Source: a virus (lineage: Duplodnaviria > Caudoviricetes). Taken from it: DNA of 64,000 nt. Made by a program: the position numbers and the translations under genes. The stretch's first letter is position 1; each line of letters starts with the position of its first letter. Shown here in pieces: positions 1-13,950 of the stretch. The stretch lies in IMG/VR virus record IMGVR_UViG_3300047160_036126, positions 13,575 through 77,574 of that record. One strand, given 5' to 3'. The notes beneath the pieces were generated by a model. It had not been told where the DNA came from. It did not search any database and was given only the letters and a program-made list of their open reading frames with translations.

Positions 1-151
1 TCGTTGCCTTGCGCTTGAGGGTGTTTTCGTAATCGGCTAGACGCCGTTGGGCTTCGGATAGATCGGCGGTGCGGAGCGAGACGCGACGCGGTTGTCCGTT
101 TTCCCGCGAGTAGGCGTAGTATTTTCCCCGGAAAAATGCGAGCCGCCACAT
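1..151 (-). CDS. int: Probable tyrosine integrase, N-terminal 50 aa only (runs off the left edge)
   Basis: Manual translation from ATG 151: MWRLAFFRGKYYAYSRENGQPRRVSLRTADLSEAQRRLADYENTLKRKAT, open to base 1. Resembles the arm-binding N-terminus (RxSLxTxDxxEA) of alphaproteobacterial phage integrases; catalytic domain not visible. Confidence 0.7.
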   Translation of the reverse strand, partial: MWRLAFFRGKYYAYSRENGQPRRVSLRTADLSEAQRRLADYENTLKRKAT

Positions 152-318
152 TCGACGAATTCCTGCATGGCCGTGGCGGCGATTCTTATCGGGCCGCGCG
201 GTAATCCGCCAAGCCTGAAATGCCGAAGTAGCCCGCGTTTGCAAAGCGCCCGCACGGTCGCCTCATGGCAATCAAGATGTTGGGCTGCAGTCTTCACGGT
301 GAAGGGCCGCTCGCTCAT
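37..318 (-). CDS. xis: Excisionase-like HTH protein (HTH_17/MerR-like)
   Basis: FTVKTAAQHLDCHEATVRALCKRGLLRHFRLGG...IRI; ATG 318 overlaps the upstream stop; adjacent to integrase. Confidence 0.8.
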   Translation of the reverse strand: MSERPFTVKTAAQHLDCHEATVRALCKRGLLRHFRLGGLPRGPIRIAATAMQEFVECGGSHFSGENTTPTRGKTDNRVASRSAPPIYPKPNGV

Positions 319-674
319 TTTCCGCCCCCGCCTGTTTGCTCGCGGCGCGGTGAAAAGGCAGGCCATTCCGGCCCGGTCATTCGGCGGCGTTGCGGGGGCC
401 AATCGGATGCGCCGGGAAGGGGCGCGGCTTGCGGTTGTGGCGGCTTTGTCTCGCGTGTCGGCTTGATCTGCGCGACGATTTCCTCGTTGGTGCGCAGATT
501 CGCGACAAACGCCTCGGCTTCTTCGCGTGTGGCGAAGTCACAGGTATGGCGTTGAGGCTGCTTGCGTTTAGGGCGTCTTCCTATCCAATTATGATGGCCG
601 GTGAAATCCCACCAATAGACGCGCCAAGGCAGGGATGGTTGAGGATCGAATGGGAGTTGGTGTGGCATAAGCAC
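315..674 (-). CDS. Hypothetical protein
   Basis: ATGA-coupled to xis; no recognised motif. Confidence 0.55.
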   Translation of the reverse strand: MLMPHQLPFDPQPSLPWRVYWWDFTGHHNWIGRRPKRKQPQRHTCDFATREEAEAFVANLRTNEEIVAQIKPTRETKPPQPQAAPLPGASDWPPQRRRMTGPEWPAFSPRREQTGGGGK

Positions 675-1152
675 CCGCTCCGCTCATAGACCAGCCGTTG
701 CGCGAAATGCGCCCGGCATCGGTCTTGCAGCGGCGGGCACCCCCCAGCCTCGGGCGTGGAAAATGGCTCTCCACGGAGAGCAGCCGATAGCGCGCTTTTA
801 GAGCGCCCTTGCGCGTCGTTGGCCTCCCGGCCCGGGCAGAGCGCTTCGGCTCAACGCCGTTTTTTCGGCGTGACGCCGAATAAGGTATCAACTTGGGATG
901 CGATTTTGCATGCGACAATCAGGCACAGCGCTTTTCGGCTGCCGCCGGTAAATCCCCGGCCCTATGGCGCGGAGGGCGATTTCCTGTTACTTCGCACAGG
1001 CGCTCCAAGCGTGCGAGGCCGGCTAAAGCTCAACGCCAGTTTCAGCGCTCCACAGATTGGTGATCGATTCGAGGTTCTGCACAAGATATAGATGCGGCAG
1101 CGAACATAATAAACCGCTGATTTTAAAGGGCGAAAGAGATGGGGTTGTGACC

Positions 1153-1256
1153 ATCCTATTTCAAGCCCATATTATGTGTGTGATCCGAACCCGGCCCATG
1201 TCGGTAAGTAGGATCGCACCGGGGAAGAGGCTTCGGCCTTTTCCCCCTTCTTTTGG
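1153..1256 (+). ncRNA. Candidate structured RNA convergent with the DUF3800 gene
   Basis: Stem GTGTGATCC(1178-1186)/GGATCGCAC(1211-1219); hairpin GGGGAAGAGGC-TTCG-GCCTTTTCCCC (1221-1246) followed by CTTCTTTT; G-U wobbles pair only on the + strand. Confidence 0.5.
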
Positions 1257-1262
1257 CGGCTT

Positions 1263-2033
1263 TCAGATTAGCACAATCCCCAGCGGATGGGTCCTGCTGG
1301 CCCGGATATTCAAGACAGGAGCGAGCCGGTCGAAATAATGTTGGGCGCCCTGCCTGCGAATGTAATTGTTTGGGGCGAACCGCTGTAAGAGAAAATACGC
1401 CACAGCATCGCACGCCTGAATCAAGTAGCTATATTTCGAGTCTCGTGAATTTGGATCTTCGATAATTTTATCGATCGGCATCATTCGGAAACCAGCGCCA
1501 TGGCCATAAAGCGCGACCGTGTGCGGGATAGGATTGTAAACCGCCATCTTCCGGATGAGCCTTTGCAGCTTCATACCCTCAGTGTCGTCGGTAATCACGA
1601 TGCCGTAATCCGTTCTGTGCGCGCCCGGAAAGTTGCCGTAATTCATTGTGTTTTCGAAGCGCTGAAATAGAACTTGCCATGCGTTGCTGAAGATATCGTA
1701 TGGCGGCGACCGATGACTTTTATCAACAATGACATTGGTGAAAGAAATAAAGTCGATCTTCGCCAGCTCGTCGAGGAAGTTGCGCAGTATCGCAAGTCGG
1801 ATATGCTTCGCCATGCCTGGAACGGGCGCATGGCGCACAAATTCGGCTGTGTGAATTTCTGTCCTCAGGGGCAACCCATACACCGCCCGAAGCGTCCTGC
1901 GAAATGCGATCAACCGCTGGATCAGCTCGCGCCATCGGCTTTCGTGCACAACGAGACTCGAAAGCGCAAAGTACCGGGTGGGAGACCTGACGAGCCCGCT
2001 GTCTCCGCTCTCGTCAACGTACATGAGATACAT
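1263..2033 (-). CDS. DUF3800 family protein (predicted RNase H-like fold)
   Basis: N-terminal YVDESGD..G and C-terminal IQACDAVAY motifs typical of DUF3800. Confidence 0.8.
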   Translation of the reverse strand: MYLMYVDESGDSGLVRSPTRYFALSSLVVHESRWRELIQRLIAFRRTLRAVYGLPLRTEIHTAEFVRHAPVPGMAKHIRLAILRNFLDELAKIDFISFTNVIVDKSHRSPPYDIFSNAWQVLFQRFENTMNYGNFPGAHRTDYGIVITDDTEGMKLQRLIRKMAVYNPIPHTVALYGHGAGFRMMPIDKIIEDPNSRDSKYSYLIQACDAVAYFLLQRFAPNNYIRRQGAQHYFDRLAPVLNIRASRTHPLGIVLI

Positions 2034-2077
2034 CGCGAGGGGCGGATGCTACAGCAGGCGCGTGCGCCGTACGGTTG

Positions 2078-2780
2078 TCACGCGGGAGTGTAGATGCCGC
2101 TCTCCGTGTTGTGCCGTCCAGCGGCATCGCCGATTTTTCGGTGAAATCGGAGGCATATGAAGTGAGTGGGTGCCTGATCGCATTTCGATCTGCCTTTGAA
2201 GAGTTGCATCCAAGGGCTGTTGCGCTGTTGCCGATCGCGCTCGGTTCGTTGCGTCCTTTGATCCTGGATGCGCGCTCGATTATTTCGGCGCCATTCTCTT
2301 AGAGCATTTTGTTGGCAAAGTATGCACTGCCTTGCAAAGTTGCCAGATTTTTGTTGAACTAGCCGGACATTGTCGTCCGTTAATGCATGACCCTTTGAGC
2401 AGTGTGTCTTGCGTGCATTATTGGCCATTATTGATTCCCCGCGCAGAACGTTTTCGGCCTGCGTTACCGGTTCGAGATGATAGGGATTTACACATAGAGT
2501 GAAGCGACATTTATGGTCGATCACAAGATCATCTGGAATTGGCCCAAATTCGAGTATGTAAGCTTCGCGGTGCATTCGAACCATTTTTGAGCATACATTC
2601 GCTACACCATAACCGGGGCTCGCTTTTGATAAGCCAAAATTTTGGCGAGCCCCGATCCAGATATGACAGCCCGTGTTTGGCTCAGGTATGGAGTATTTTT
2701 CGAGGCGCTCCTTTATGGAAACCTGGATGATTTCCCTTGTCGCATCTTGGAACAGAGTTTTTGCGTTTTTGGTTTTTCAT
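2078..2780 (-). pseudogene. HNH endonuclease (HNH_3 type) with an apparent +1 frameshift just after the start codon
   Basis: VIDHKCRFTLCVNPYHLEPVTQAEN. The frame stays open upstream of 2584 through PEPNTGCHIWIGAR (matching the paralog at 9861), but the coupled ATG at 2780 is one base out of frame in an A5 run. Confidence 0.7.
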
Positions 2781-3281
2781 TTAGGCTACACTATAGACGC
2801 CTCCATTGTTACCGATTTTCTGCTGCTTACGCAACAAAACAAGTGCATTTGATGCCGCGCTTGCCGCTGACTTATCGGTCCTCATACCCAGGGCTTCCAA
2901 AATTTGGCCCCGGTTCATTCCGTCAGGATGACGCTGTAAAAGATCGAGGATACGATTTGCGGTCTCGCCGCGCGGCCTGGTGAAGGCGCTGACACGTCCC
3001 CGCGTGCGAGCCGTAGTAGCGGCAGCGGGGGACGGGTCGAATTCGCCGTGCTGGATCGCCTGCAGGGCTTGCAGGGTGCGAACAGTTCGTTCGGCTGCCT
3101 CTAACTCCGTCCGCTTCGTTTCGACGATCTGGCGAGCTTCCGCGAGCTTGTCTTCGATGCCGCCGGCGAGCTGGTCGAGGAAGTCTTCAAGGGATAGGTC
3201 GGCTATCACTTTGCGGGCCTGGGCTGCGGCGGCCGCACCGTGTAACCGGCGAGGTTCTTCGGTTTGATGGTCTTCGGACAC
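2781..3281 (-). CDS. Hypothetical protein, coiled coil plus C-terminal winged-HTH-like domain
   Basis: NRILDLLQRHPDGMNRGQILEALG...ASNALVLLRKQQKI. Confidence 0.6.
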   Translation of the reverse strand: MSEDHQTEEPRRLHGAAAAAQARKVIADLSLEDFLDQLAGGIEDKLAEARQIVETKRTELEAAERTVRTLQALQAIQHGEFDPSPAAATTARTRGRVSAFTRPRGETANRILDLLQRHPDGMNRGQILEALGMRTDKSAASAASNALVLLRKQQKIGNNGGVYSVA

Positions 3282-3339
3282 AACCTTATCCTTTCGCTGA
3301 TGTGCCTTCAGCGAAAGGATGGGAAATCAGGTTATGGTG

Positions 3340-3900
3340 TCAAGAAGGCTGAAACTTTTCTATTTCGTTGCCCCATGTCGTCCAGCCCGGACGCGTGCAT
3401 CGTCCGAAAAGTTCACAGAAGGGCCCGTCCCATAATGCCTCGATATCCTCATACATTTGTTCTGGCTTGCGCGAGTGCTCCCGTACCGGCGCGACGATAA
3501 GATTGCGGACGTTGCGAACCCTCTGTTTCGGATGTCCGAGCGTGCCGAGCAACCAGAACTCTGCGGCGCTACGGTAGCAGTAGCCAGTTCCGAAAGCCCA
3601 TTTTTCTCCGGTGCTGGATTGCTTCGCCCATGCGCCGGCCGATTTGAAGGCGAACCCCCATGCCTTCATGGTATCGATCGCTTCGGGCAGGAGCGGAGAT
3701 GTCGCCCACATAATCAAAGCACAGTCCGGCCGCGCAAGCTGCGAAACCGGAAGGGCTTTGATCTCGGCAAGCGACATACATGTATAGTGCGAAACCGGAT
3801 TTTTCTTCTCGCCCTTCGCGCTGTAATTAGCGAAGCGCCACGGCGGATCGCAAAGGATGACGCCGTATCTTAGAGGAGTAAGGTTTTCAAACGGCCACAT
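3340..3900 (-). CDS. MT-A70 family N6-adenine methyltransferase (orphan)
   Basis: VILCDPPW catalytic motif, ALIMWAT, HSRKPE, ELFGR. Confidence 0.9.
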   Translation of the reverse strand: MWPFENLTPLRYGVILCDPPWRFANYSAKGEKKNPVSHYTCMSLAEIKALPVSQLARPDCALIMWATSPLLPEAIDTMKAWGFAFKSAGAWAKQSSTGEKWAFGTGYCYRSAAEFWLLGTLGHPKQRVRNVRNLIVAPVREHSRKPEQMYEDIEALWDGPFCELFGRCTRPGWTTWGNEIEKFQPS

Positions 3901-4150
3901 GGAGGGTGTCGGCCACCAGCTTCATGTAGCCGATGATATCGTGCCAGCTATCGTGAAACTCCGGGTCGCCATTTAGGATGCGAGCCGCTTTGTGGGCGAG
4001 CATTTCGAGGGCTTCACGCTTATCTGGCGTGAGTTTCGACCAATTGGGACTGTCGGCCATTGCCCGTTTGATGGCCTGAGAGATGCGCGCGTGTTCCTGA
4101 AAGGAGCCGTAACGCTTACCGCGTTCTTCTAGGGTTTGGGCGATGTCCAT
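3887..4150 (-). CDS. DUF6378-like phage protein
   Basis: LEERGKRYGSF...KAARILNGDP..DSWHDIIGY. Confidence 0.7.
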   Translation of the reverse strand: MDIAQTLEERGKRYGSFQEHARISQAIKRAMADSPNWSKLTPDKREALEMLAHKAARILNGDPEFHDSWHDIIGYMKLVADTLHVAV

Positions 4151-4161
4151 GGATCACCGCC

Positions 4162-4611
4162 TTATTCCTCGTCCTCTTCGTCGAGCGGCAACCCCGGTTC
4201 GTCCTTATCGATCTCCGGCTTACTACGGTGGCCGAGGTAAGGATTGATGTCGCTTAAAACGACGGTGACACTTCCACCTTGCGCTTCGACCAGGTCGTGG
4301 CGACCTTCGGCCATTTTGCTGCCCTTGAGCACGATCTTGAGGCCGTCTTTGACGACAACCTGTTCAAGCGTGCAGTGCATGGATTTGAAGCCGCGGCCGG
4401 CGACGATCTCGGCTGTTTTGCGTACGCATTCGGTCGCGGTAAATTCCGCGCTCGCCGCCACGTCCTTCTGCTGCGCCTCTTTCATACCCTTCCAGTCGGC
4501 GTGCTGCTTGAACATATTGAGGATGGCTTCGCGAAGATCGCCCACAAGTGTTGCGGCCTGGACGTCGATCTTTTCTTGGTCGGGTTTCTGCTGCGGTTTC
4601 TTCTTGGGCAT
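4162..4611 (-). CDS. Conserved hypothetical phage protein
   Basis: ATG 4611 preceded by an AGGGAG RBS; acidic C-terminus. Confidence 0.65.
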   Translation of the reverse strand: MPKKKPQQKPDQEKIDVQAATLVGDLREAILNMFKQHADWKGMKEAQQKDVAASAEFTATECVRKTAEIVAGRGFKSMHCTLEQVVVKDGLKIVLKGSKMAEGRHDLVEAQGGSVTVVLSDINPYLGHRSKPEIDKDEPGLPLDEEDEE

Positions 4612-4789
4612 CGTCTGCTCCCTGTTTTCTTGATTAGTTGAATTAAAATGCAGCGCCTGGTTCTGTAGCGTAAACGCTGAGCTTGCCTGCCTCGCTTCTA
4701 CGGCATCGTTATACACGACCGGCTATCGGACTCACGACCTGCTCTCATGCTGAACACAGGCGCTGCATCCATTCCCGTTAGGGAACTCC

Positions 4790-5152
4790 TTATGCCGGCT
4801 CCGGCTTACGATCTAGCATCTGAATGCTGCCATTGAATGGCCGCAGGACGATTTCGGTAGCGTTGTGCTTCACCCCATCCTTTTCGTATTGCCGATGCTC
4901 AAGGGCTCCGCGCAGGACAACGCGCGAACCTTTCTTGAGATGAGGGACGACGTGTTCAATCAGCGCGGCATTCCACAAGACAACCGGATGAAACTGCGAC
5001 CGAGTTTGTGTGGTACCAGCGTCGTTTTTCCATGTATCGGTTGTTGCGACCGAGAAGTTTGCGACTTGCTGGCCGCCTTGTAGCGAACGGACTTCGGGAT
5101 CGCGGGTGAGACGACCGAGTAAGGTGACTTCGTTAAGTGTTGCTTCAGGCAT
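4790..5152 (-). CDS. ssb: Single-stranded DNA-binding protein (OB fold only)
   Basis: LNEVTLLGRLTRDPEVR...FSVATTDTWK...KKGSRVVLRGALEHRQYE. Confidence 0.92.
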   Translation of the reverse strand: MPEATLNEVTLLGRLTRDPEVRSLQGGQQVANFSVATTDTWKNDAGTTQTRSQFHPVVLWNAALIEHVVPHLKKGSRVVLRGALEHRQYEKDGVKHNATEIVLRPFNGSIQMLDRKPEPA

Positions 5153-5232
5153 GGCACTTTCTCCCGTTGGTTTGTGGTTTAATGCACTGCACTTCGATCG
5201 GTTACGCCATTTCCTTTAAGGACGAAAGTTAA

Positions 5233-5667
5233 TCAATTATATCCTTCAAGGATCGCATTGATCTGGTCGGTTAATTCGTCTCGGTTGACGGTTGGCAGGA
5301 TGCGAGTAGTGATGATGTCGAGAACCCGATTGTAGAATTCTTCAAAAGATGTTTGCGACATGGCCGAGAAGCTAATCGATTTTGGCATGATGAATGGCAT
5401 GCCGTCTATCGTTGTTTTGGTTTCGAAGTATCCAGTCGCTACTTTAAGCGCGGATAACAAATCATAGGTGGTTGCATATTGCTGCTGGTGAGGGAACACT
5501 GCTTGCAGTAAAGCCCAGAGCTTACGATGATGCGCTGGATTGCGTGCTCTCCGCAGAGTCGCGGTTACAATCTCCCTATCATTGATGCTTTCGAGTCCTT
5601 CAAGACTGACGGGATCGGCCGCGGCGAGCTTCTGGCCTTCGCGCACAAGGAGCAGGTCGAGACTCAT
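5233..5667 (-). CDS. DUF1367/NinB-like recombination accessory protein
   Basis: RARNPAHHRKLWALL...PKSISFSAMSQTSFEEFY. Confidence 0.7.
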   Translation of the reverse strand: MSLDLLLVREGQKLAAADPVSLEGLESINDREIVTATLRRARNPAHHRKLWALLQAVFPHQQQYATTYDLLSALKVATGYFETKTTIDGMPFIMPKSISFSAMSQTSFEEFYNRVLDIITTRILPTVNRDELTDQINAILEGYN

Positions 5668-6302
5668 GCAGCCTCGCGATAGCCGAGCTTGGTGAGGCGC
5701 GCGAGCTTGTCCTGAAGCTTGGCGTTAAACTGCTTAAGCAGGGTCGCCATTTCGGACAGGTATGTTTCCTCGCGGCCGACACGGATGATTACCGGCGGTA
5801 GTTCCGGGTGATAGGAAACGAGGTCAACCCATTTGCGGCCGGTGACTAAAAGCTGGCCCTGTGTCTGGGGGCGATATTTTTGGTCGATCTTTTGGTCGAG
5901 CAGATATTGGATGTGGGTGTGCGGCGCGGGGCATTTCAGTTCGAGAAGGCCGTCAGCACCAATAATCCGGTCAGGGCTGCATCCCATTGTGCGTGCGTCG
6001 TCGGTGCAGAAGCCGACCGTCTTGGCTTCGACGCCCGTCTGCAATTCGTAAAAAGCTGCTGCGCTTGCCTCAAGCTCCTTACCGCGTTCCGTGTGTTCGT
6101 TGCCATTCCAATGATCCTCATCGATCTCGGCAATAGGTTTGCCGGTCATGATCTCCGCGATAAGCAGGTTGGCGTAAGCATCGGCCTGTTTAGATGGTCC
6201 GCCGGTAGGGCAGATGATTTTAGAGAATGCCGAAGCCGTCGGCAGACCAAGCCTCGCGGAATTCCATTCGTCGCTATATTGGGGGCAATCGACAGTTATC
6301 AC
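5664..6302 (-). CDS. YqaJ/lambda-exonuclease family recombinase nuclease
   Basis: EWNSARLGLPTAS, RGKELE, CSPDRII, LELKCP, QTQGQL. Confidence 0.9.
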   Translation of the reverse strand: MITVDCPQYSDEWNSARLGLPTASAFSKIICPTGGPSKQADAYANLLIAEIMTGKPIAEIDEDHWNGNEHTERGKELEASAAAFYELQTGVEAKTVGFCTDDARTMGCSPDRIIGADGLLELKCPAPHTHIQYLLDQKIDQKYRPQTQGQLLVTGRKWVDLVSYHPELPPVIIRVGREETYLSEMATLLKQFNAKLQDKLARLTKLGYREAA

Positions 6303-7087
6303 TGAGCCTTCGTCTTTCCAGCTTCTGATTTGAGTTTGTTTTCTTTATCTCTTTCCTTTTCCTTTGCTGCCAGCGCAACAGTGGCTTGCTTGTAGTTCTT
6401 GGCGGGAATATCGATTGCCTTTTCCACCTTCATATATTTCAGGAAATTTTGATGAACCTCTTCGCCTAAGGCCCGCGCTCGTTTATCGAGTTCGGCGGCC
6501 TGCTCTATGGTGATATTCCCGGTTTCGTGATTACCGTCCTTGTCGTCGCCCGTGCTGATATTCAGTAAGGCGCAGATTGCGACGCGCTTCGCATAGGTGA
6601 CGGACGATGAGGTCGCATGCGGAAGGGTCTTGTTGACCGTGCCGGCGATACCCGTCTTATCGAGCGGCATCGTGATCGTGGTTTCTTCTACATGGCCGCC
6701 TCGGTGCCAGAGTTCGGCCTTGACCGTGACGCTGGTGTCGGTCTGTGCGATAATCTTCGTGGCGGTGCCGAAGCCGTATTTTTCTAAAACCGGGTCGATC
6801 TCGACGTTAATGTCTTCCAGCGGGGCATATTTGGATTTGGTCTGAGTGTTTTCCTTGCGCCGCAATACCTTCGGCAAATGCGGCTTCATGAGAACGTAAT
6901 CTGCGGCAAAAGCCTGTTTCGCATTCCGGTTTAGAATGTGTTCTTGAAGCGACATAAGCTTTTCGAGCTTCGTAACATCGAAATTCGGATCGGTCGCCGC
7001 GCGTTCGATCATGTTCATGACTGCCGCACGTTCGTCCTGTGCGGCGGGCAATTGCTGTTGTTCTTCGATCTTCTGTACGGCGTTCAT
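6299..7087 (-). CDS. ERF family ssDNA-annealing protein
   Basis: SKYAPLEDI...SSVTYAKRVAICALLNISTGDDKDG. Confidence 0.85.
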   Translation of the reverse strand: MNAVQKIEEQQQLPAAQDERAAVMNMIERAATDPNFDVTKLEKLMSLQEHILNRNAKQAFAADYVLMKPHLPKVLRRKENTQTKSKYAPLEDINVEIDPVLEKYGFGTATKIIAQTDTSVTVKAELWHRGGHVEETTITMPLDKTGIAGTVNKTLPHATSSSVTYAKRVAICALLNISTGDDKDGNHETGNITIEQAAELDKRARALGEEVHQNFLKYMKVEKAIDIPAKNYKQATVALAAKEKERDKENKLKSEAGKTKAQ

Positions 7088-7114
7088 GGGTTTCTCCCTG
7101 TTGTTGGTTTGTTT

Positions 7115-7303
7115 TTAATCGTCGTGGTGTCGGCGTTCTCCGGCTATCAATTCCTGTTCGGCTTTCTCGGCGTCTGCGATGAGCGTATCGACCTTGCGCT
7201 CAAGGTCTTTGGATGTGAGCAAGTCGTTGCGGTCGCGGGTCTTGAAATACCGCTTCTGCGCGTCGCGCATAGCGCGAACATTGGTCATGAACGTGGTCGT
7301 CAT
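7115..7303 (-). CDS. Hypothetical protein
   Basis: Translationally coupled small ORF in the left operon. Confidence 0.6.
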   Translation of the reverse strand: MTTTFMTNVRAMRDAQKRYFKTRDRNDLLTSKDLERKVDTLIADAEKAEQELIAGERRHHDD

Positions 7304-7581
7304 TTCCGCACCTTCGCCTTGATGACGCGCGCAGCATCATCCATCCCCTTGCGGGTAAGCACCTTGCCTTGCATTGGCTGCAACGCGCGCTGTGCTTCCT
7401 CTATAGCGGCACTGGAAATCCGTGCTGCGTACTCGGCCTGCGTCACTCGCTGGATGTTCGCGCGACTCGCTTCCTTGATGGCGTCACTGCGATTACCGTA
7501 TTCCGTCAAAGCGGCAAGCCCGATAAACAAGATCGCCATTGCGACGAAGGAAAAGCCGATATTTTTTATCGCCCAATTCAT
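7300..7581 (-). CDS. Hypothetical membrane-anchored protein
   Basis: N-terminal hydrophobic helix; ATGA overlaps on both sides. Confidence 0.6.
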   Translation of the reverse strand: MNWAIKNIGFSFVAMAILFIGLAALTEYGNRSDAIKEASRANIQRVTQAEYAARISSAAIEEAQRALQPMQGKVLTRKGMDDAARVIKAKVRK

Positions 7582-7859
7582 TCACTCGCCTCCCTCACCA
7601 TCGTTTCAAGATCGCCGCCCCGGTGATACCAGTCGTTCACGGCGTCCATGATGCGCTCGTTGGCGCGGCTGAGCGGTGGAACGGATGGCATCCATCCGTC
7701 TGCGAAGCGTTGGTCATATTCGGCTTGCCCGGCCTCGTAGTCGAGAAATGCCTTGACGGCCTTCTTGTCATCTTTAGTGACTTCGCTGTGATAGTCCCAG
7801 TAAAGTCGTAAGACAGTGAGCTTGGCGCGCGCCAATTCTTTTTCAGAGCGGTGGATCAT
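7578..7859 (-). CDS. Hypothetical protein
   Basis: ATG 7859 overlaps the stop of the upstream ORF. Confidence 0.55.
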   Translation of the reverse strand: MIHRSEKELARAKLTVLRLYWDYHSEVTKDDKKAVKAFLDYEAGQAEYDQRFADGWMPSVPPLSRANERIMDAVNDWYHRGGDLETMVREASE

Positions 7860-8077
7860 TTCAGCACCTTTGCGTCTTTCAGCGCTTTTCGGCATTCGTG
7901 GCGGAAGACCTGGACCGATGTGAAGCGGCCAACGCCGTATATCTTTCGTGTGGCGCTCCGGCGCAACCATGCGCTGTTGTAAAACAAATAAATAAGAGTG
8001 CCCGCGATGATGAGAGCAAAGGCCGCATAGCCCCAAATTGGGAACGAGCAAAATCCTGCAAGATGTCCGTGGCACAT
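7856..8077 (-). CDS. Small membrane protein, first gene of left operon 1
   Basis: GGAG RBS; one transmembrane segment. Confidence 0.55.
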   Translation of the reverse strand: MCHGHLAGFCSFPIWGYAAFALIIAGTLIYLFYNSAWLRRSATRKIYGVGRFTSVQVFRHECRKALKDAKVLK

Positions 8078-8111
8078 GGGGGCTCCTTGTTATTGCTTTT
8101 GCTTGTGCCCA

Positions 8112-8139
8112 AAGTTAACCAAGAAAGGTTATTTGTCAA
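8112..8139 (-). promoter_or_regulatory. Leftward sigma70-type promoter with a palindromic operator in the spacer
   Basis: Minus strand TTGACA(8139-8134)-N16-TAACTT; operator TAACCA-AGAA-AGGTTA at 8116-8131. Confidence 0.55.
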
Positions 8140-8209
8140 TTAATATCCGCAGAAATCTGCGCAAGGAAATTTCGTTCTTGCGGTAGTAATAAAAAGCGTT
8201 TGATTTATT

Positions 8210-8225
8210 TAACCATTCCTGCTTA
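8210..8225. promoter_or_regulatory. Second copy of the operator, upstream of the rightward HTH gene
   Basis: TAACCA-TTCC-TGCTTA, one mismatch to TAACCA-N4-TGGTTA. Confidence 0.5.
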
Positions 8226-8236
8226 TAGATTAAGCT

Positions 8237-8518
8237 ATGAAGGACACTAAGTCTGCTACCCCCCTCGAAGCTGCAATCCGCAAGATAGGGATGAAGCCAT
8301 CGCGCTTGGCAAGATTGTTTGCAAAAAAGAAGAAAAGCAAGAGTTCGAATCCGGCGGCTCGCATACACGATTACTGCAAAGGTAACATATTCCCTGAATA
8401 TGATAACGCCGTGGTGCTGCATGGAATCGTAGTGGGCGCCGGCGGCCGTATTGAGTTGGAAGACATCATCGACCCTCCGCAGCGCAGGGAGAAAAAACGC
8501 AATGCTACTCCTCGCTGA
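8237..8518 (+). CDS. Cro/XRE-like HTH regulator
   Basis: PLEAAIRKIGMKPSRLARL...IHDYCKGNIFP; first gene of a divergent operon. Confidence 0.65.
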   Translation: MKDTKSATPLEAAIRKIGMKPSRLARLFAKKKKSKSSNPAARIHDYCKGNIFPEYDNAVVLHGIVVGAGGRIELEDIIDPPQRREKKRNATPR

Positions 8519-8789
8519 TATATTCAATCATCTCATTCATGAGTCCTGGTTCACTGCGGCGCTTATAGCCACCATCCTCGTGCTTGGCAGTCTTATTGCC
8601 GGATGGTCGATGCATGATGCTACGCTGGTGTCAAAATGCAAACAACTCGCTGCAGACCTGGAGCTGGCGCAAGGTCATAACCGTCACTGGCAGCGAAAGC
8701 TCAAAGAGGAAAAAAGCCGGCGCATGGCAATCATTGGGACCCGCGGTGCTTTTGTAACCAATGCCAAGCGAAAGCAAAAGAAGGGATGA
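8502..8789 (+). CDS. Membrane-anchored coiled-coil hypothetical protein
   Basis: Transmembrane segment followed by a coiled coil. Confidence 0.55.
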   Translation: MLLLADIFNHLIHESWFTAALIATILVLGSLIAGWSMHDATLVSKCKQLAADLELAQGHNRHWQRKLKEEKSRRMAIIGTRGAFVTNAKRKQKKG

Positions 8790-9026
8790 ATGCCCCGTGG
8801 CCTCAGCTATTCCGCTCGGCGCCGTCTGTACAAGGAACTATTCGCGCGCGACGGCAATCTGTGCTGGATCTGTGGTGAACCGATAAGCCGGAACAATCGA
8901 GGCAAAACCATGAGTCGCACTTTGGATCGCGTCATCCCCGGAAAACAGGGTGGAACCTATCGGCCGGACAATCTTCGACTCGCGCATAAGCTCTGCAATG
9001 AACTGCGGGGAGCATCGCCCGCATGA
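8790..9026 (+). CDS. Small HNH endonuclease-like protein
   Basis: CWICGE...TLDRVIP..QGG...DNLRLAHKLCN; catalytic DH appears as DR. Confidence 0.8.
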   Translation: MPRGLSYSARRRLYKELFARDGNLCWICGEPISRNNRGKTMSRTLDRVIPGKQGGTYRPDNLRLAHKLCNELRGASPA

Positions 9027-9232
9027 CACAGGACGGATTTCTCAAATCTCTCAGCGATAACAAGACCGCCGTAACCATTTATATTGTCAACGGTGTCAAA
9101 TTGATGGGCGTGATCGCGTGGCACGATCAATACACGATCGGCCTCTGCCGCGACGGCCGCACGCAGATGGTCTATAAACATGCAATCGCAACCGTGATGC
9201 CGAATGAACCGCCGCAAGTATCAGGACGCTGA
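9023..9232 (+). CDS. hfq: Hfq-like RNA chaperone (phage-encoded)
   Basis: QDGFL..., Sm1 VTIYIVNGVKLMGVI..HDQY, Sm2 QMVYKHAIATVMP. Confidence 0.92.
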   Translation: MTQDGFLKSLSDNKTAVTIYIVNGVKLMGVIAWHDQYTIGLCRDGRTQMVYKHAIATVMPNEPPQVSGR

Positions 9233-9333
9233 AGCCGATTTGCTTCTTTGGCGCATGCTTGGCTGTAATCTCCATGGCGAGCTGATAGAATGTTATGCTA
9301 GTATTACGGGATGGGATAACTCGGTAGCGACCA

Positions 9334-9846
9334 ATGCTGCTCACCGATCTGCTTTTGCTTCTTGCGATATTCATGGCAATTCGAGCGTGCCCGAAGAAAG
9401 GCCCCAAGCCGAAGAAAGAACGCCGCTGGCTTCGACGCAATAAGGCGCCACGCAAACGCGGTAGGTTTCACGCAGGACGCCCATCGCGATTTCCTCCCGA
9501 TTGGGCTTGGGCGCGCCAGCAGCAATATAATCGGATCATGCAAACTACCTCGGCGGAAGCCGCTGTATGCGCCGTCCTTCGGAATCTTGGCATACAATAC
9601 GAACGGGAACATATCGTAATGCGCCCAAATGGGCGGCCACTTTTTGTAGATGTGTGGGTGCCGTCGCTTCGGATTGGTATGGAACTGGACGGCTCTCACC
9701 ATCGAGACTGTCTAGACGTATATGATATTCCGCGTGATCAATGGATAGAAAAAGAAACAGGATTTAAAATTCTGCGCCAATGGAATAAATGGGCTACCGA
9801 TCCAGGATTGGAATATAGATTGAAATCCGTACTTAAATTGCTATAA
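9334..9846 (+). CDS. DUF559/Vsr-like PD-(D/E)xK endonuclease
   Basis: EAAVCAVL...YERE...FVDVWVPSLRIGMELDGSHH; start uncertain. Confidence 0.75.
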   Translation: MLLTDLLLLLAIFMAIRACPKKGPKPKKERRWLRRNKAPRKRGRFHAGRPSRFPPDWAWARQQQYNRIMQTTSAEAAVCAVLRNLGIQYEREHIVMRPNGRPLFVDVWVPSLRIGMELDGSHHRDCLDVYDIPRDQWIEKETGFKILRQWNKWATDPGLEYRLKSVLKLL

Positions 9847-9860
9847 ATGCGAAACGCCGG

Positions 9861-10556
9861 ATGCTTGAACATCGCGGCGTTTCTAAACCAATAACAGGGA
9901 TGGCTGCCATGGTTTCGTGCAGTGTAATATCACTACCAGATAATTTACAAAATAAGATTATGCCAGAACCAACGTCGGGTTGCTGGTTATGGATCGGGGC
10001 TAGAGATCCGAGAGGGTATGGCCGCAGGACGGCGCAGGATCATGGTGAGAGATTAGCACATAGAGCGGTGTACAAAATACTACGAGGGCCAATACCGCGC
10101 GGTCTATTTTTATGTCATACGTGTGACAATCCTCCTTGTGTAAATCCTTCGCATATGTTTGTCGGAACACAACTCGACAATATGAGGGACTGCTTTTCGA
10201 AAGGCCGAGGACAAGACTTGCGCGGAGAAGAAAAGTATTGTGCGGTGTTAACAGAGAAAGATGTGATTGAGATCCGCCTTTCTAAGGAAATAACTCGTGA
10301 TCTGGCAAAAAGGTATGGGGTAAATAAAGCGTCGATCACAAGTTGTCGGCTCGGAAATACATGGAAGCATCTTAACGAAAAGTATCCACCATTAAAATTT
10401 TTTGATATTCTGACGAATGAACAGAGATTTACGGCCTTTCACGATAAACGTCCTATTATGGAAATTGCGCGCGACTATGGAGTAGCCTACCAGAGTATTT
10501 GGCAGCTTAAGCGCAGGGGGCTTAAGCCTCGTGGTCGCCCGCCTAAACATCGATAG
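9861..10556 (+). CDS. HNH homing endonuclease (HNH_3) with C-terminal HTH repeats
   Basis: PEPTSGCWLWIGA, LCHTCDNPPCVNPSHMFVGTQLDN; start uncertain. Confidence 0.88.
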   Translation: MLEHRGVSKPITGMAAMVSCSVISLPDNLQNKIMPEPTSGCWLWIGARDPRGYGRRTAQDHGERLAHRAVYKILRGPIPRGLFLCHTCDNPPCVNPSHMFVGTQLDNMRDCFSKGRGQDLRGEEKYCAVLTEKDVIEIRLSKEITRDLAKRYGVNKASITSCRLGNTWKHLNEKYPPLKFFDILTNEQRFTAFHDKRPIMEIARDYGVAYQSIWQLKRRGLKPRGRPPKHR

Positions 10557-10669
10557 AGAACATCAGTAATGCTGAACCGCCTGTCGCCGCACCGGAAAGC
10601 CCCGACGTTCCCTTCGCCCAATCCTGAGCCTTCCTTGCGCCGCGCACAGGGGCTATAGGATGCGTCCTT

Positions 10670-10945
10670 ATGGCCTTCGAAGACGATGCACTGCGGCTCT
10701 TAAAACTGAATTCGGAGATTACCGAGCTGACCGTCAGGCTGTGGCTGCGGCTTGGGCGTATGACTGAAGAGGAGTGGGAAGCCGAGCGCCAGCGGCGATT
10801 GAGACGAATGAGGGTTGTTGAGCGAATGGAAAACGGAATAGTACTAAAAGGCGATGCCCCGATAATGGCCGATATGATCGATGAGGCTTTGCAGGCCAGG
10901 GAAAAATACAAACGAATGCTTGAAGGAGACCGCGATGCGCCGTGA
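10670..10945 (+). CDS. Hypothetical protein
   Basis: Helical ORF coupled to the next gene. Confidence 0.5.
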   Translation: MAFEDDALRLLKLNSEITELTVRLWLRLGRMTEEEWEAERQRRLRRMRVVERMENGIVLKGDAPIMADMIDEALQAREKYKRMLEGDRDAP

Positions 10946-11423
10946 TCCGGCCAGGGCCGTGAAGCTGCTCGACCTCATGTTGGAATTCTTTGGCGAGGAC
11001 GGTCACAGGTGGGCGCGCGGCTGGCATGATCCAAGGACAGGGGCCAGGTGCCTTGTGGGAGCAATGAACCATCTTCGGAGCCGCCACAGGATTTGTCGGG
11101 ATGGTGCTGGTCGGTATCTTGACGATGCGTTGCCCGCCCGGTGGCGCGGCTTAATAAAGTTCAATGATGAACACGAGGGCGGCTGGTTTGAAGTGCTGAT
11201 GGTTCTGGCAAAAGCGCGGCAACTCGCTTTATGCGAGCTTAGCGGCACACCGAAGCCAGTAAAGGCGCACCAGCCACGCCGTGAGGCGTCATTGAGGGCC
11301 CGAATAGACCTCTTGAGCCAAATCTATGAAGACCGCTGCTCGCCAAGGGTGCGCTGGATAACCAAGGATACCTATATCCTTTGCCCCAATGAGCCGGTCG
11401 AGGCGCTCCCAATGGCGGCCTAG
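10935..11423 (+). CDS. Hypothetical protein (DUF6197-like)
   Basis: GAAGGAG RBS before ATG 10935; RWARG...RCLVGAM motif. Confidence 0.55.
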   Translation: MRRDPARAVKLLDLMLEFFGEDGHRWARGWHDPRTGARCLVGAMNHLRSRHRICRDGAGRYLDDALPARWRGLIKFNDEHEGGWFEVLMVLAKARQLALCELSGTPKPVKAHQPRREASLRARIDLLSQIYEDRCSPRVRWITKDTYILCPNEPVEALPMAA

Positions 11424-11720
11424 CCGGGCTTTAACTGCTCTGCCAGCGCCCAAATGGCCTCGGCTATCGTCGGAGCCTGCGCACGTGCTAGCGGTTCATC
11501 CACGGCCTTCTGACGCAGATCGGTGGCCTCTGCAACGGTGATGCTGCCTGTGCGGCCCTGCAAGGCCTTCTGATAGCGTTCGTCGATGATCCTGGCGTAG
11601 GGCGCGGGATAGGCACGGGCGATGATCTCGCGCCCGGTTGCTATAAGTTCGATACGGGCAAGCTGGTGGCGGTCGATCAAGGCGCTTGAGCTGGGTTTCG
11701 GGGGTGGCTGGCTTTGGCAT
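11420..11720 (-). pseudogene. Hypothetical protein, probably split by a +1 frameshift
   Basis: MPKPATPETQLKRL (ATG 11720) reads on naturally into IDRHQLARIELI... in the adjacent frame near 11680. Confidence 0.4.
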
Positions 11721-11723
11721 GGA

Positions 11724-11927
11724 TCACCACGGGATGGGCCGTCCATCATCACCCCTACGCCACGGAATAACCCTGCCGTCCTTATCGAGCCTACGGGTGC
11801 CGTATTGTTCGAGGGGCAAGGATAGGTTTGAGTGGATTTCGCACAGCTTGTTTTCCGCTCGCATGGCGACTTCCCAGCCGCAGATGATACACTCGCGCTG
11901 GATATCTTGGTTTGCTGGGTTTGGCAT
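11724..11927 (-). CDS. Small Cys/His-containing hypothetical protein
   Basis: CIICG...CEIH. Confidence 0.5.
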   Translation of the reverse strand: MPNPANQDIQRECIICGWEVAMRAENKLCEIHSNLSLPLEQYGTRRLDKDGRVIPWRRGDDGRPIPW

Positions 11928-12043
11928 TCAGGCATCATACTAAAAAGCCGCGGATATGCACAACCCTGCCAGCGCGTTTTCTTTCATCAAGCGCAGTATC
12001 TGTTTTGCTCATCTTGGCTTCCCCTCATCGTCCACCAAATATG

Positions 12044-12648: not shown

Positions 12649-13019
12649 CCGGCAACCCCCGGCACGGCGAACAAGGCATTTCGACATGCCGTCCCGATAG
12701 ATCGCAGGACGGCCGGGGACGCTTTGCTGGCGGACAAGTAGCCTGATGCGTCGGACGTGGTGGAAGTCCCTTCTGCAGTATCGTCGGCGTGCAGGACGCC
12801 AGCGATGATCGTAGTGCTGCCGTTGTCGGATTTGGGATCGGGTATCCGGGTGGCACTGAAAACTATATCGACGTTGCCATTGCGGTCGGGCCTCTCGTCA
12901 CATTGCAAGCGCGCCGGAAGGCCATGCGCTCCCAGCTCTCCATGTTCTTCTTGGGCCAGCGCCTGAAAGCTGATTAAAGCCGCGGCAAATACGATTGCGA
13001 CCTGAGAAAGTTTATCCAC
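12645..13019 (-). CDS. Secreted hypothetical protein
   Basis: Signal peptide-like N-terminus ending ALA-Q; two Cys. Confidence 0.6.
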   Translation of the reverse strand: MDKLSQVAIVFAAALISFQALAQEEHGELGAHGLPARLQCDERPDRNGNVDIVFSATRIPDPKSDNGSTTIIAGVLHADDTAEGTSTTSDASGYLSASKASPAVLRSIGTACRNALFAVPGVAG

Positions 13020-13060
13020 TTATAGCTCCATTCTGCTATAGGGCGGGTTTAGTCATGCTG

Positions 13061-13351
13061 TCACCCTGCCGGACTTGCACCGGCTCGGCTCGCTACAGCG
13101 AACCGTCTTTCGACTTTGCGGTCTAGTCTCGTGATGACATGAGGGTGATTTCGCGGTGTCTGTTTGACTAATCTTCCACCTCTTCGCTCTCTGGCAGAGT
13201 TAATCAAATCTCTACATCTTTGACACGATTTGTAATCGCCTGCCCAGCCCGAACATCGTGAGCATCTGTTACCACCCATTTCTTTAGGCGCTTCCGTTTT
13301 CTTTTCAGGTGCAGGTAAGCTTTTTAAGTTTTGTCGATAGATGTGTGGCAT
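13061..13351 (-). CDS. Zn-finger hypothetical protein
   Basis: CSRCS...CQRC. Confidence 0.55.
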   Translation of the reverse strand: MPHIYRQNLKSLPAPEKKTEAPKEMGGNRCSRCSGWAGDYKSCQRCRDLINSARERRGGRLVKQTPRNHPHVITRLDRKVERRFAVASRAGASPAG

Positions 13352-13357
13352 TATCAG

Positions 13358-13579
13358 TTATTCTGCAAATTCCAAACAGTCGTAATGAAGCCGATCGTCC
13401 TGCTTCCTTCCAGGCCAGCGGACACGCACTATCTCGGATTTGCTCTGCGGTTGTCGATTGACTACTCCTATTTCCTCGCCCCAGAGCGATAACAATGGTC
13501 GTTGTTTGCGTCCTTGTGGCGACAGCCGAACCTTATCTCTGATCCTGAACGGGTTTTCGGTTTCTTGTTTGTCGGTCAC
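13358..13579 (-). CDS. Small hypothetical protein (SH3/KOW-like)
   Basis: GTG 13579 overlaps the upstream stop; FRIRDKVRL...GVV...VRVRW. Confidence 0.55.
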   Translation of the reverse strand: MTDKQETENPFRIRDKVRLSPQGRKQRPLLSLWGEEIGVVNRQPQSKSEIVRVRWPGRKQDDRLHYDCLEFAE

Positions 13580-13950
13580 GCCGCCTCCATCAATTCGCGC
13601 GCGCGGACTTTGCTCGACTCCGGCATCTCCCAGCATTCGCCCCAATGGGTTTTGATCTCGATGCCGAACGGCTTGAGTTTTTTGCGCATCTTGCAAATCC
13701 ATACGTCGAGGATCTTCTCACCCGGCGGCTCGTCGGCCTCGGTGCTGTACATTGCCGCAATGAAGGCTTCGACTCTTGGCGCCCGATTGTTAAGCAAAAC
13801 GTTGAACATTTCTGCTTCGCTGCGAGTGAGGTTGAAATAGGGCGGCGGCATATCCGCTCCCTTAAGAGCCTTCTTAAGCAGGCGGATCTCTTCACGCAGC
13901 GTCTCGTTCTCGACGTCAAGAACTTCTGCCCTCGCCTTCCAGTCGATCAT
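13576..13950 (-). CDS. Receiver-less CtrA-like OmpR winged-helix protein with an N-terminal coiled coil
   Basis: DEPPGEKILDVWICKMRKKL...IKTHWG closely matches CtrA DEPELKIIDVFICKLRKKL...IETVWG; no receiver domain. Confidence 0.82.
   Translation of the reverse strand: MIDWKARAEVLDVENETLREEIRLLKKALKGADMPPPYFNLTRSEAEMFNVLLNNRAPRVEAFIAAMYSTEADEPPGEKILDVWICKMRKKLKPFGIEIKTHWGECWEMPESSKVRARELMEAA

Follow-up and report, generated by a model that had tools for sequence, protein, structure and literature searches.

The DNA analysed here, referred to as the window, is a stretch of 64,000 nucleotides taken from a provirus record of IMG/VR (77.6 kb), of which it covers bases 13575-77574. An intact open reading frame on its plus strand, at positions 9023-9232, encodes an Hfq of 69 amino acids. 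The gene belongs to the rightward operon of a temperate phage with an alphaproteobacterial-type host. Its surroundings are listed below; all positions refer to the window, except those of the integrase, which are given in G000.

G000 12763-13818: tyrosine integrase, at the left end
Leftward operon: DUF3800 gene, YqaJ exonuclease, ERF recombinase
8076-8236: divergent control region of 160 bp, after which the rightward operon with hfq begins
8116-8131 and 8210-8225: TAACCA-N4-TGGTTA-like half-palindromes seen in the sequence of the control region
8200-8229, plus strand: candidate promoter TTGATT-N18-TATAGA, read by eye and under the threshold of the promoter scanner
From 8237, plus strand: rightward operon, in the order 93-aa protein, 112-aa protein, HNH, hfq, DUF559-like, HNH_3-like, DUF6197
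8237-8518, plus strand: opening gene of the rightward operon; its 93-aa product has no Pfam or PHROG match
8790-9026, plus strand: HNH endonuclease gene (Pfam HNH, E 4.4e-7; PHROG HNH families)
9007-9012, plus strand: Shine-Dalgarno-like GGGGAG, read from the sequence, 10 nt upstream of the hfq ATG
9023-9232, plus strand: hfq, 69 aa; its Sm core is minimal, extended by 2 residues at the N-terminus and by a non-acidic tail of 9 residues
9334-9846, plus strand: DUF559 endonuclease-like gene (Pfam, PHROGs)
9861-10556, plus strand: HNH_3 homing-endonuclease-like gene (Pfam, PHROGs)
17123, 21867 and 23902: DnaB, large terminase and portal, followed by tail genes
Beyond 51 kb: MOBQ relaxase and coupling-protein kit

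The TGA stop of the HNH gene overlaps the start codon of hfq (ATGA at 9023-9026), which suggests that hfq is translationally coupled to the HNH gene upstream. A promoter scan returned no promoter-like site immediately 5' of hfq. Given this result and the ATGA overlap, hfq is most simply co-transcribed with the early rightward operon; operon position, taken alone, would make it an early gene. The candidate promoter of the operon ends 7 nt upstream of the ATG of the first rightward gene, a distance that suggests a leaderless or near-leaderless early mRNA. The half-palindrome TAACCA-N4-TGCTTA lies within the spacer of this promoter (window 8200-8239).

Three endonuclease-type genes (HNH, DUF559, and HNH_3 with a homing-endonuclease C-terminal part) flank hfq within 1.8 kb, and the region 8790-10556 has the appearance of a landing pad for selfish genes. 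In the DUF559 and HNH_3 genes, GC3 drops to 0.40-0.47. The GC content of hfq is 0.52 and its GC3 0.63; both values are similar to those of the neighbouring phage genes, and hfq is therefore not a fresh capture by composition. An open reading frame at 9204-9443 overlaps the 3' end of hfq in another frame, and coding is ambiguous between 9233 and 9540. The DUF559 frame, which opens at 9334, has a hydrophobic, basic N-terminus, and its domain match starts only at residue 70.

The housekeeping neighbourhood of chromosomal hfq genes (miaA-hfq-hflX or the alphaproteobacterial equivalent) is absent around the phage gene. The genes of the left flank are of mobile-element type only, and no tRNA was found at the integrase end. 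Searches of plasmid and phage DNA returned no close record for the provirus, and no related phages were found via the ERF recombinase.

Family membership and predicted fold

The reading frame matched Pfam PF17209 with an E-value of 1.9e-24 (85.5 bits, cut-off 27) and passed the NCBIfam equivalog TIGR02383 (79.7 bits, cut-off 61.7). With the stricter NF001602 profile it scored 83.2 bits, under the cut-off of 95; a canonical alphaproteobacterial neighbour (P0013) scored 123.9. The closest solved relative by sequence was the Hfq of Caulobacter crescentus (6GWK; phmmer E 1.5e-20). An AlphaFold2 model, calculated from a 47-sequence alignment, had a mean pLDDT of 93. The predicted structure has the Sm layout, with an N-terminal helix (residues 3-12) followed by five strands. 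In a Foldseek search of this model against the PDB, the best 50 matches were all Hfq, with 6GWK at the top (TM 0.90, rmsd 0.8 A, 55% identity).

Judged by profile scores and predicted fold, the assignment of the product to the Hfq family is secure. An earlier note, written from the sequence, had described a clear phage-encoded Hfq with the motifs NGVKL and YKHAI. Both motifs are present (residues 23-27 and 51-55) and, together with the profile scores and the match to 6GWK, they bear this description out; the gene indeed sits within a prophage, between its recombination and replication modules.

Rim residues, RNA-binding faces and tail

Residues were mapped by alignment, with phage position n equal to Caulobacter n+7 and E. 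coli n+5. The rim segment was defined by alignment to 6GWK and E. coli Hfq and compared in a survey of the 208 nearest single-domain Hfqs, composed of 128 cluster representatives and 80 sequences from species genomes. The positions discussed are the following.

9053-9064, plus strand: codons of the rim segment S11-D12-N13-K14
S11: Caulobacter R18, E. coli R16
D12: Caulobacter K19, E. coli R17
N13: Caulobacter S20, E. coli E18
K14: Caulobacter K21, E. coli R19
9122-9124, plus strand: codon of H34, at the position of E. coli F39
9146-9148, plus strand: codon of C42, at the rim's distal side; Caulobacter R49, E. coli K47
R43: Caulobacter R50

At the rim, alphaproteobacteria carry R-K-x-K, E. coli R-R-E-R and the phage S-D-N-K. 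The rim of Caulobacter Hfq is formed by R18, K19, K21, R49 and R50, and the acidic DADD tip of the protein docks on it (PMC6561178). In the phage protein (S11, D12, K14, C42, R43) two of the five positions are still basic; among the three that are lost, one has given way to an acid. It is the matchmaker activity, and not membership of the fold family, that a basic rim defines. The survey showed how unusual the pattern is. Position 16 in E. coli numbering is Arg in 204 of the 208 nearest Hfqs and Ser in the phage; at least two of the four rim positions are basic in 202/208, whereas the phage has one basic residue; and Asp at position 17 occurs in one other protein of the 208. The position of E. 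coli K47 (Caulobacter R49), Cys in the phage, is Arg or Lys in 127 of the 128 alphaproteobacterial-type representatives. Phe occupies the F39 position in 203 of the 208; His, as in the phage, occurs in only two others, both of them rim-poor.

Two basic residues are new. K8 stands at the position of E. coli N13, where 126 of the 128 relatives have N, and R46 lies in the beta3-beta4 loop (Caulobacter H53), where the relatives have H or Q. With these gains the basic surface, as read from the alignment, is re-drawn and not simply neutralised. Helix geometry places D12 one turn from K8, with which it may pair and which it may thereby neutralise.

The tail of the phage protein, NEPPQVSGR, has E62 as its sole acidic residue, and a basic C-terminal Arg takes the place of the acidic tip. 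The acidic, rim-docking C-terminal tip (DADD in Caulobacter, DSEETE in E. coli) is thus absent; such tips compete with RNA for the Hfq rim (PMC6561178).

The proximal uridine pocket is intact (Q3, Q36, Y37, Y51, K52, H53, plus A54-I55), and Q8, D9, Q41, Y42, Y55, K56 and H57 in E. coli numbering are unchanged. The distal A-R-N face is also present (Y20, N23, G24, V25, K26, Q48, T57), with its main residues, Y25, N28, G29, V30, K31, Q52 and T61 in E. coli numbering, unchanged. Compared to columns conserved in more than 80% of the 128 alphaproteobacterial-type representatives, the phage protein departs at ten positions (E. coli numbering): N13K, L26I, Q33M, T37A, F39H, N41Q, F42Y, L45G, L53M and S60A. 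Three of these changes, L26I, Q33M and S60A, affect the distal face at positions that are invariant in the 128 relatives, and L45G alters a core position; with these four changes, binding specificity or stability may differ. Since the substitutions at conserved sites spare the proximal pocket, they speak for selection, not decay. At the beta4/beta5 interface, only L53M and S60A set the phage protein apart from alphaproteobacterial Hfq, and this near-identity is suggestive of homohexamer formation, though only suggestive.

The earlier note had stated that the basic rim patch is missing, that the loss lies in the rim segment SLSDNK, and that the residues of the proximal face (QD, YKH, HDQY) and distal face are kept. 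The arginine patch is gone (S-D-N-K) and the statement stands, with the correction that K14 is retained and K8 and R46 are newly basic. The helix segment was correctly located, although it does not contain the entire loss: the residue equivalent to E. coli K47 and Caulobacter R49 has become Cys as well. On the faces, the pocket with QD and YKH is unaltered, as proposed, and the distal face is almost complete; HDQY has to be struck from the list of retained residues, because the phage has His at the position of E. coli F39.

The Hfqs of Caulobacter and other alphaproteobacteria share with the phage protein the Sm fold, W38, the RDG loop, YKHAI, TVMP and both pockets. Compared to Caulobacter Hfq, the phage protein has S, D and C in place of R18, K19 and R49 and His in place of the Phe equivalent to E. 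coli F39, and it lacks both the basic N-terminal extension and the acidic DADD tip. Unlike the alphaproteobacterial chromosomal gene, phage hfq is not beside hflX.

Relatives, origin and other element-borne Hfqs

Close relatives were not found. A word-indexed search of 5.8 billion clusters returned the phage Hfq's own cluster alone. In a HMMER search against 1.84 billion cluster representatives, the own cluster matched with 99% identity, and all others were at most 60% identical. The 90% cluster to which the protein belongs holds two sequences on about seven contigs. A peptide-pattern search of IMG/VR gave seven loci with 38-50% identity and no close relative, a WHD-specific DNA pattern in IMG/VR gave chance matches in a phosphoesterase only, and identities in the species-genome scan did not exceed 55%. 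The phage Hfq is a rim-less, phage-borne version of a well-known family and a near-singleton in current databases.

An Hfq match was present in 352 of 401 sampled alphaproteobacterial species genomes (a tally that takes in the unpublished genomes G241 and G041, on which nothing else in the analysis depends), and the best was 60% identical to the phage protein. Given this frequency, the phage host very probably also encodes a canonical Hfq. Two Hfq matches were found in four genomes among those listed in the 401-genome sample. Two of the four cases are single tandem proteins, and one is a Firmicutes-type copy on a small contig, which is likely contamination. The remaining case is a 4.7-Mb alphaproteobacterial genome (G368), whose second Hfq is encoded on contig 3 (48.8 kb; L146:8775-9011) next to mnmA, MFS and HlyD genes, an ordinary chromosomal setting with no obvious mobile element. 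This second copy has the rim TDHH, F39H, H57R (FKRAIS) and the motif HDNYT. A metagenomic Hfq (P0100) has the rim AENH and the motif HHDIYT.

Comparison with host Hfq was made against the alphaproteobacterial representatives, using trees built on a core of about 65 columns. The phage Hfq nests among alphaproteobacterial-type sequences on a long terminal branch (0.95 changes per site; the median is 0.048). It forms a clade with the second copy of G368 and P0100 (UFboot 86, SH-aLRT 91). After the rim, F39 and neighbouring columns were removed, a quick free search placed the phage Hfq elsewhere; the tree constrained to unite the three proteins scored better by 8.2 units of log-likelihood, and the clade was not rejected (p-AU 0.73). 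The three proteins have rim loss, F39H and Y-T in common. They differ in that the G368 copy and P0100 are 36-49% identical to the phage protein and, as far as seen, are not phage-borne. The origin of phage hfq may lie in a lineage of rim-less Hfq paralogues that is old and rare, a reading based on few columns and for which long-branch attraction is possible. We rejected a recent copy of a host hfq as the source: the branch is long, identity is 60% or less, and the composition is phage-like.

A profile made from the three rim-less proteins retrieved mainly tandem Hfqs from Sphingomonadales and not the rim-less subfamily that was sought. These tandem proteins contain two domains, in some cases three (P0002-P0033 and others, P0161-P0280); their sources name Sphingomonadales, with the genera Novosphingobium, Erythrobacter and Sphingobium. 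Domain 1 keeps RKxK, and domain 2 is without the rim patch and often has K31 changed to M. Judging from these sequences, nature has rings in which rim-plus and rim-less Sm modules are combined.

Further weak rims were seen among single-domain Hfqs of the alphaproteobacterial type: KDEK with F39H in P0098/P0157 (a cluster of 10, on up to 33 contigs), QKNE in P0065, and STNK with LLCRDG in P0012, which lies on a 2.9-Mb contig.

In the search for other element-borne Hfqs, PHROGs contained a weak match only (E 9e-4), and the seven Hfq matches in INPHARED resemble host DNA or are unverified records. One of these, MT835489.1 (L106, 63 kb, "UNVERIFIED: Bacteriophage sp."), was rejected as a precedent for a phage Hfq: its gene order is mutL-miaA-hfq, typical of a Firmicutes chromosome, and at least the hfq-bearing part of the record looks bacterial. 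A profile scan of IMG/VR found 14 Hfq loci. Some of these (L093, L094) belong to host flanking DNA: the gene order is miaA-hfq-hflX, and the rims are canonical. The genuinely element-borne Hfqs are rim-poor (QECR, AENE, RDDQ), with one case of RKEK. The QECR rim is that of a family of IMG/VR contigs with a GC content of 0.58 (L097:4980-5192; also L006-L009, L096, L098 and L099). Their 70-aa Hfq has Y25 changed to T, and its gene, flanked on one side by that of a DUF3797 protein and on the other by that of a VapE-type primase/helicase of 801 aa, is part of a phage or satellite replication module. The other rims belong to low-GC (0.30-0.34) integrative elements: AENE in L095:4974-5261, which also has H57 changed to N, RDDQ in L100:4980-5258, and RKEK in L091:4959-5213. 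In L095 and L100, hfq follows a P4-type integrase (Arm-DNA-binding domain) at a distance of one or two genes; the L091 integrase is assumed to be of the same type from the similar layout. Plasmid-borne Hfq-like genes were present in 268 records, 198 of them from Bacillus. These plasmid and IMG/VR element Hfqs differ from the phage protein in identity (about 50% at most), lineage and gene context. Searches of the literature yielded no publication describing an Hfq homologue encoded by a phage.

Possible roles of the phage Hfq

Hfq is the central hub of small-RNA regulation in proteobacteria, and phages are among its users. In T4, the host Hfq hexamer is bound to gp14 and serves as a second gate for the genome; the contacts involve K31, Q33, T49, S65 and R19 (PMC12929587). 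The exploitation of host Hfq for Qbeta replication is noted in PMC4963395, and host Hfq is also exploited through phage sRNAs and anti-sRNAs.

The closest functional parallel is a laboratory mutant. E. coli Hfq R16A/R17A/R19D assembles into hexamers, and its binding of sRNAs, A18 and U-rich RNA is about equal to that of the wild type; it shows no annealing and no strand exchange (PMC3753642). Like this mutant, the phage protein has lost arginines 16 and 17 with both faces intact; it differs in being natural, in having Lys at position 19, in the addition of K8 and R46, and in its changes at F39 and K47. The annealing rate increases with the number of rim arginines (PMC10628458). Gram-positive Hfqs (Staphylococcus) have few rim arginines, a weakly basic rim and low annealing activity, according to a passage in PMC10628458 that cites Zheng et al. 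2016. In their low-GC hosts, such weak-rim proteins are the only Hfq on the chromosome, whereas the phage Hfq is an extra copy of the alphaproteobacterial type.

We tentatively favour, at somewhat less than an even chance, a minimal early ring that binds RNA but anneals it poorly, and that would act as a holder of RNA or a competitor for it, not as a matchmaker. The repressor-controlled rightward (early) operon of this temperate alphaproteobacterial phage would produce the minimal Hfq ring. Because both faces are kept, the ring should still bind U-tails and A-rich sites: the retained proximal pocket and most of the distal face would engage the 3' U-tails of sRNAs and A-rich sites in mRNAs. With its rim dismantled (E. 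coli R16 to S, R17 to D, K47 to C, F39 to H) and without an acidic tip, it would form stable but passive RNA complexes, by analogy with R16A/R17A/R19D. In this way the phage Hfq could titrate host sRNAs and mRNAs, drawing them from host Hfq, could poison host rings by co-assembly, or could shield phage RNAs. A counterpoint is that K14, K8 and R46 could rebuild a basic surface, and annealing may persist.

This counterpoint is the core of an alternative in which the protein is a dedicated chaperone of phage RNA, with a rebuilt basic surface (K8, K14, R43, R46), annealing retained and specificity changed. The gain of K8 and R46 at positions otherwise occupied by N (126/128) and H or Q speaks for it, as do the intact proximal pocket and a plausible small RNA in the prophage (about 1182-1256) that ends in a terminator stem of 11 bp and a U-rich tail. 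Candidate ligands would be this terminator-bearing RNA by the DUF3800 gene and antisense RNAs of the switch. Against retained annealing stands the finding that even the R16K mutant only partly supports the annealing of long RNAs in E. coli (PMC3753642); D12, moreover, may neutralise K8, if the helix geometry is read correctly. We regard a dedicated chaperone as doubtful, although it deserves serious attention. The earlier note had offered mixed hexamers that sequester host sRNAs, or chaperoning of a phage RNA such as the one near 1.2 kb. All of these are plausible, in that they fit the behaviour of the rim mutant (PMC3753642), and mixed rings with host Hfq are made plausible by the near-identical beta4/beta5 interface and the natural rim-plus/rim-less tandems. 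A natural dominant-negative "anti-Hfq" appears unlikely: its subunits, with ring interfaces intact and the arginine rim missing, would co-assemble with host Hfq or compete against it as homo-hexamers and so halt sRNA regulation early in infection or induction.

Two further explanations dispense with riboregulation. As a ring partner, the protein might plug the head-tail connector transiently or assist in its assembly, for which the use of the host Hfq hexamer as a transient neck plug by T4 (PMC12929587) is a precedent, or it might be a partner in replication, of Rho or of the degradosome. The gene's place in the early region, 12 kb off the terminase, remote from the genes for neck and tail and not adjoining DnaB (17123), fits none of this well; the T4-contact residues Q33 and R19 are M and K in the phage protein, and the RNA-binding pockets are its most conserved part. 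We consider a ring partner decidedly improbable. Least credible, with very little probability in our estimate, is a drifting passenger without a role, picked up with the surrounding homing-endonuclease-like genes. The long terminal branch (0.95 changes per site, where the median is 0.048), the three endonuclease-type selfish genes on its flanks and the failure to find a related phage with this hfq are what one would expect of such a passenger. It would, however, hardly have kept an open frame, high family scores, a confident model and phage-like composition, nor would Q8, D9, Y55, K56, H57, Y25, G29, K31, Q52 and T61 have been retained while the rim changed.

The phage protein is a natural variant close to a laboratory mutant able to bind RNA but not to anneal it. 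Provided that it is active, it would offer a ready-made probe to separate the holding of RNA from its matching, and it could represent a new phage route to silence or rewire host riboregulation. Interest is tempered by its near-singleton status and by the weak-rim Hfqs that already exist in Gram-positive bacteria. Should the anti-Hfq reading be true, the protein would be an RNA-level take-over device in a phage that has, in addition, reduced look-alikes of cell-cycle regulators of the host.

The putative small-RNA locus occupies positions 1147-1256 on the plus strand. No Rfam family matched the window at the gathering threshold, nor bases 1-12,000 at E-values up to 1. The locus begins with a promoter-like GTGACC-17-TATTAT (1147-1175). 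At its 3' end, an 11-bp G+C-rich hairpin (1221-1246) is followed by a CTTCTTTT tail, and the terminator with CUUCUUUU spans 1221-1256. Terminators with a U-rich tail are the type of 3' end that is bound by the proximal faces of Hfq, and the small RNA is therefore a possible ligand of the phage protein. It is convergent with the DUF3800 gene (1263-2033, minus strand).
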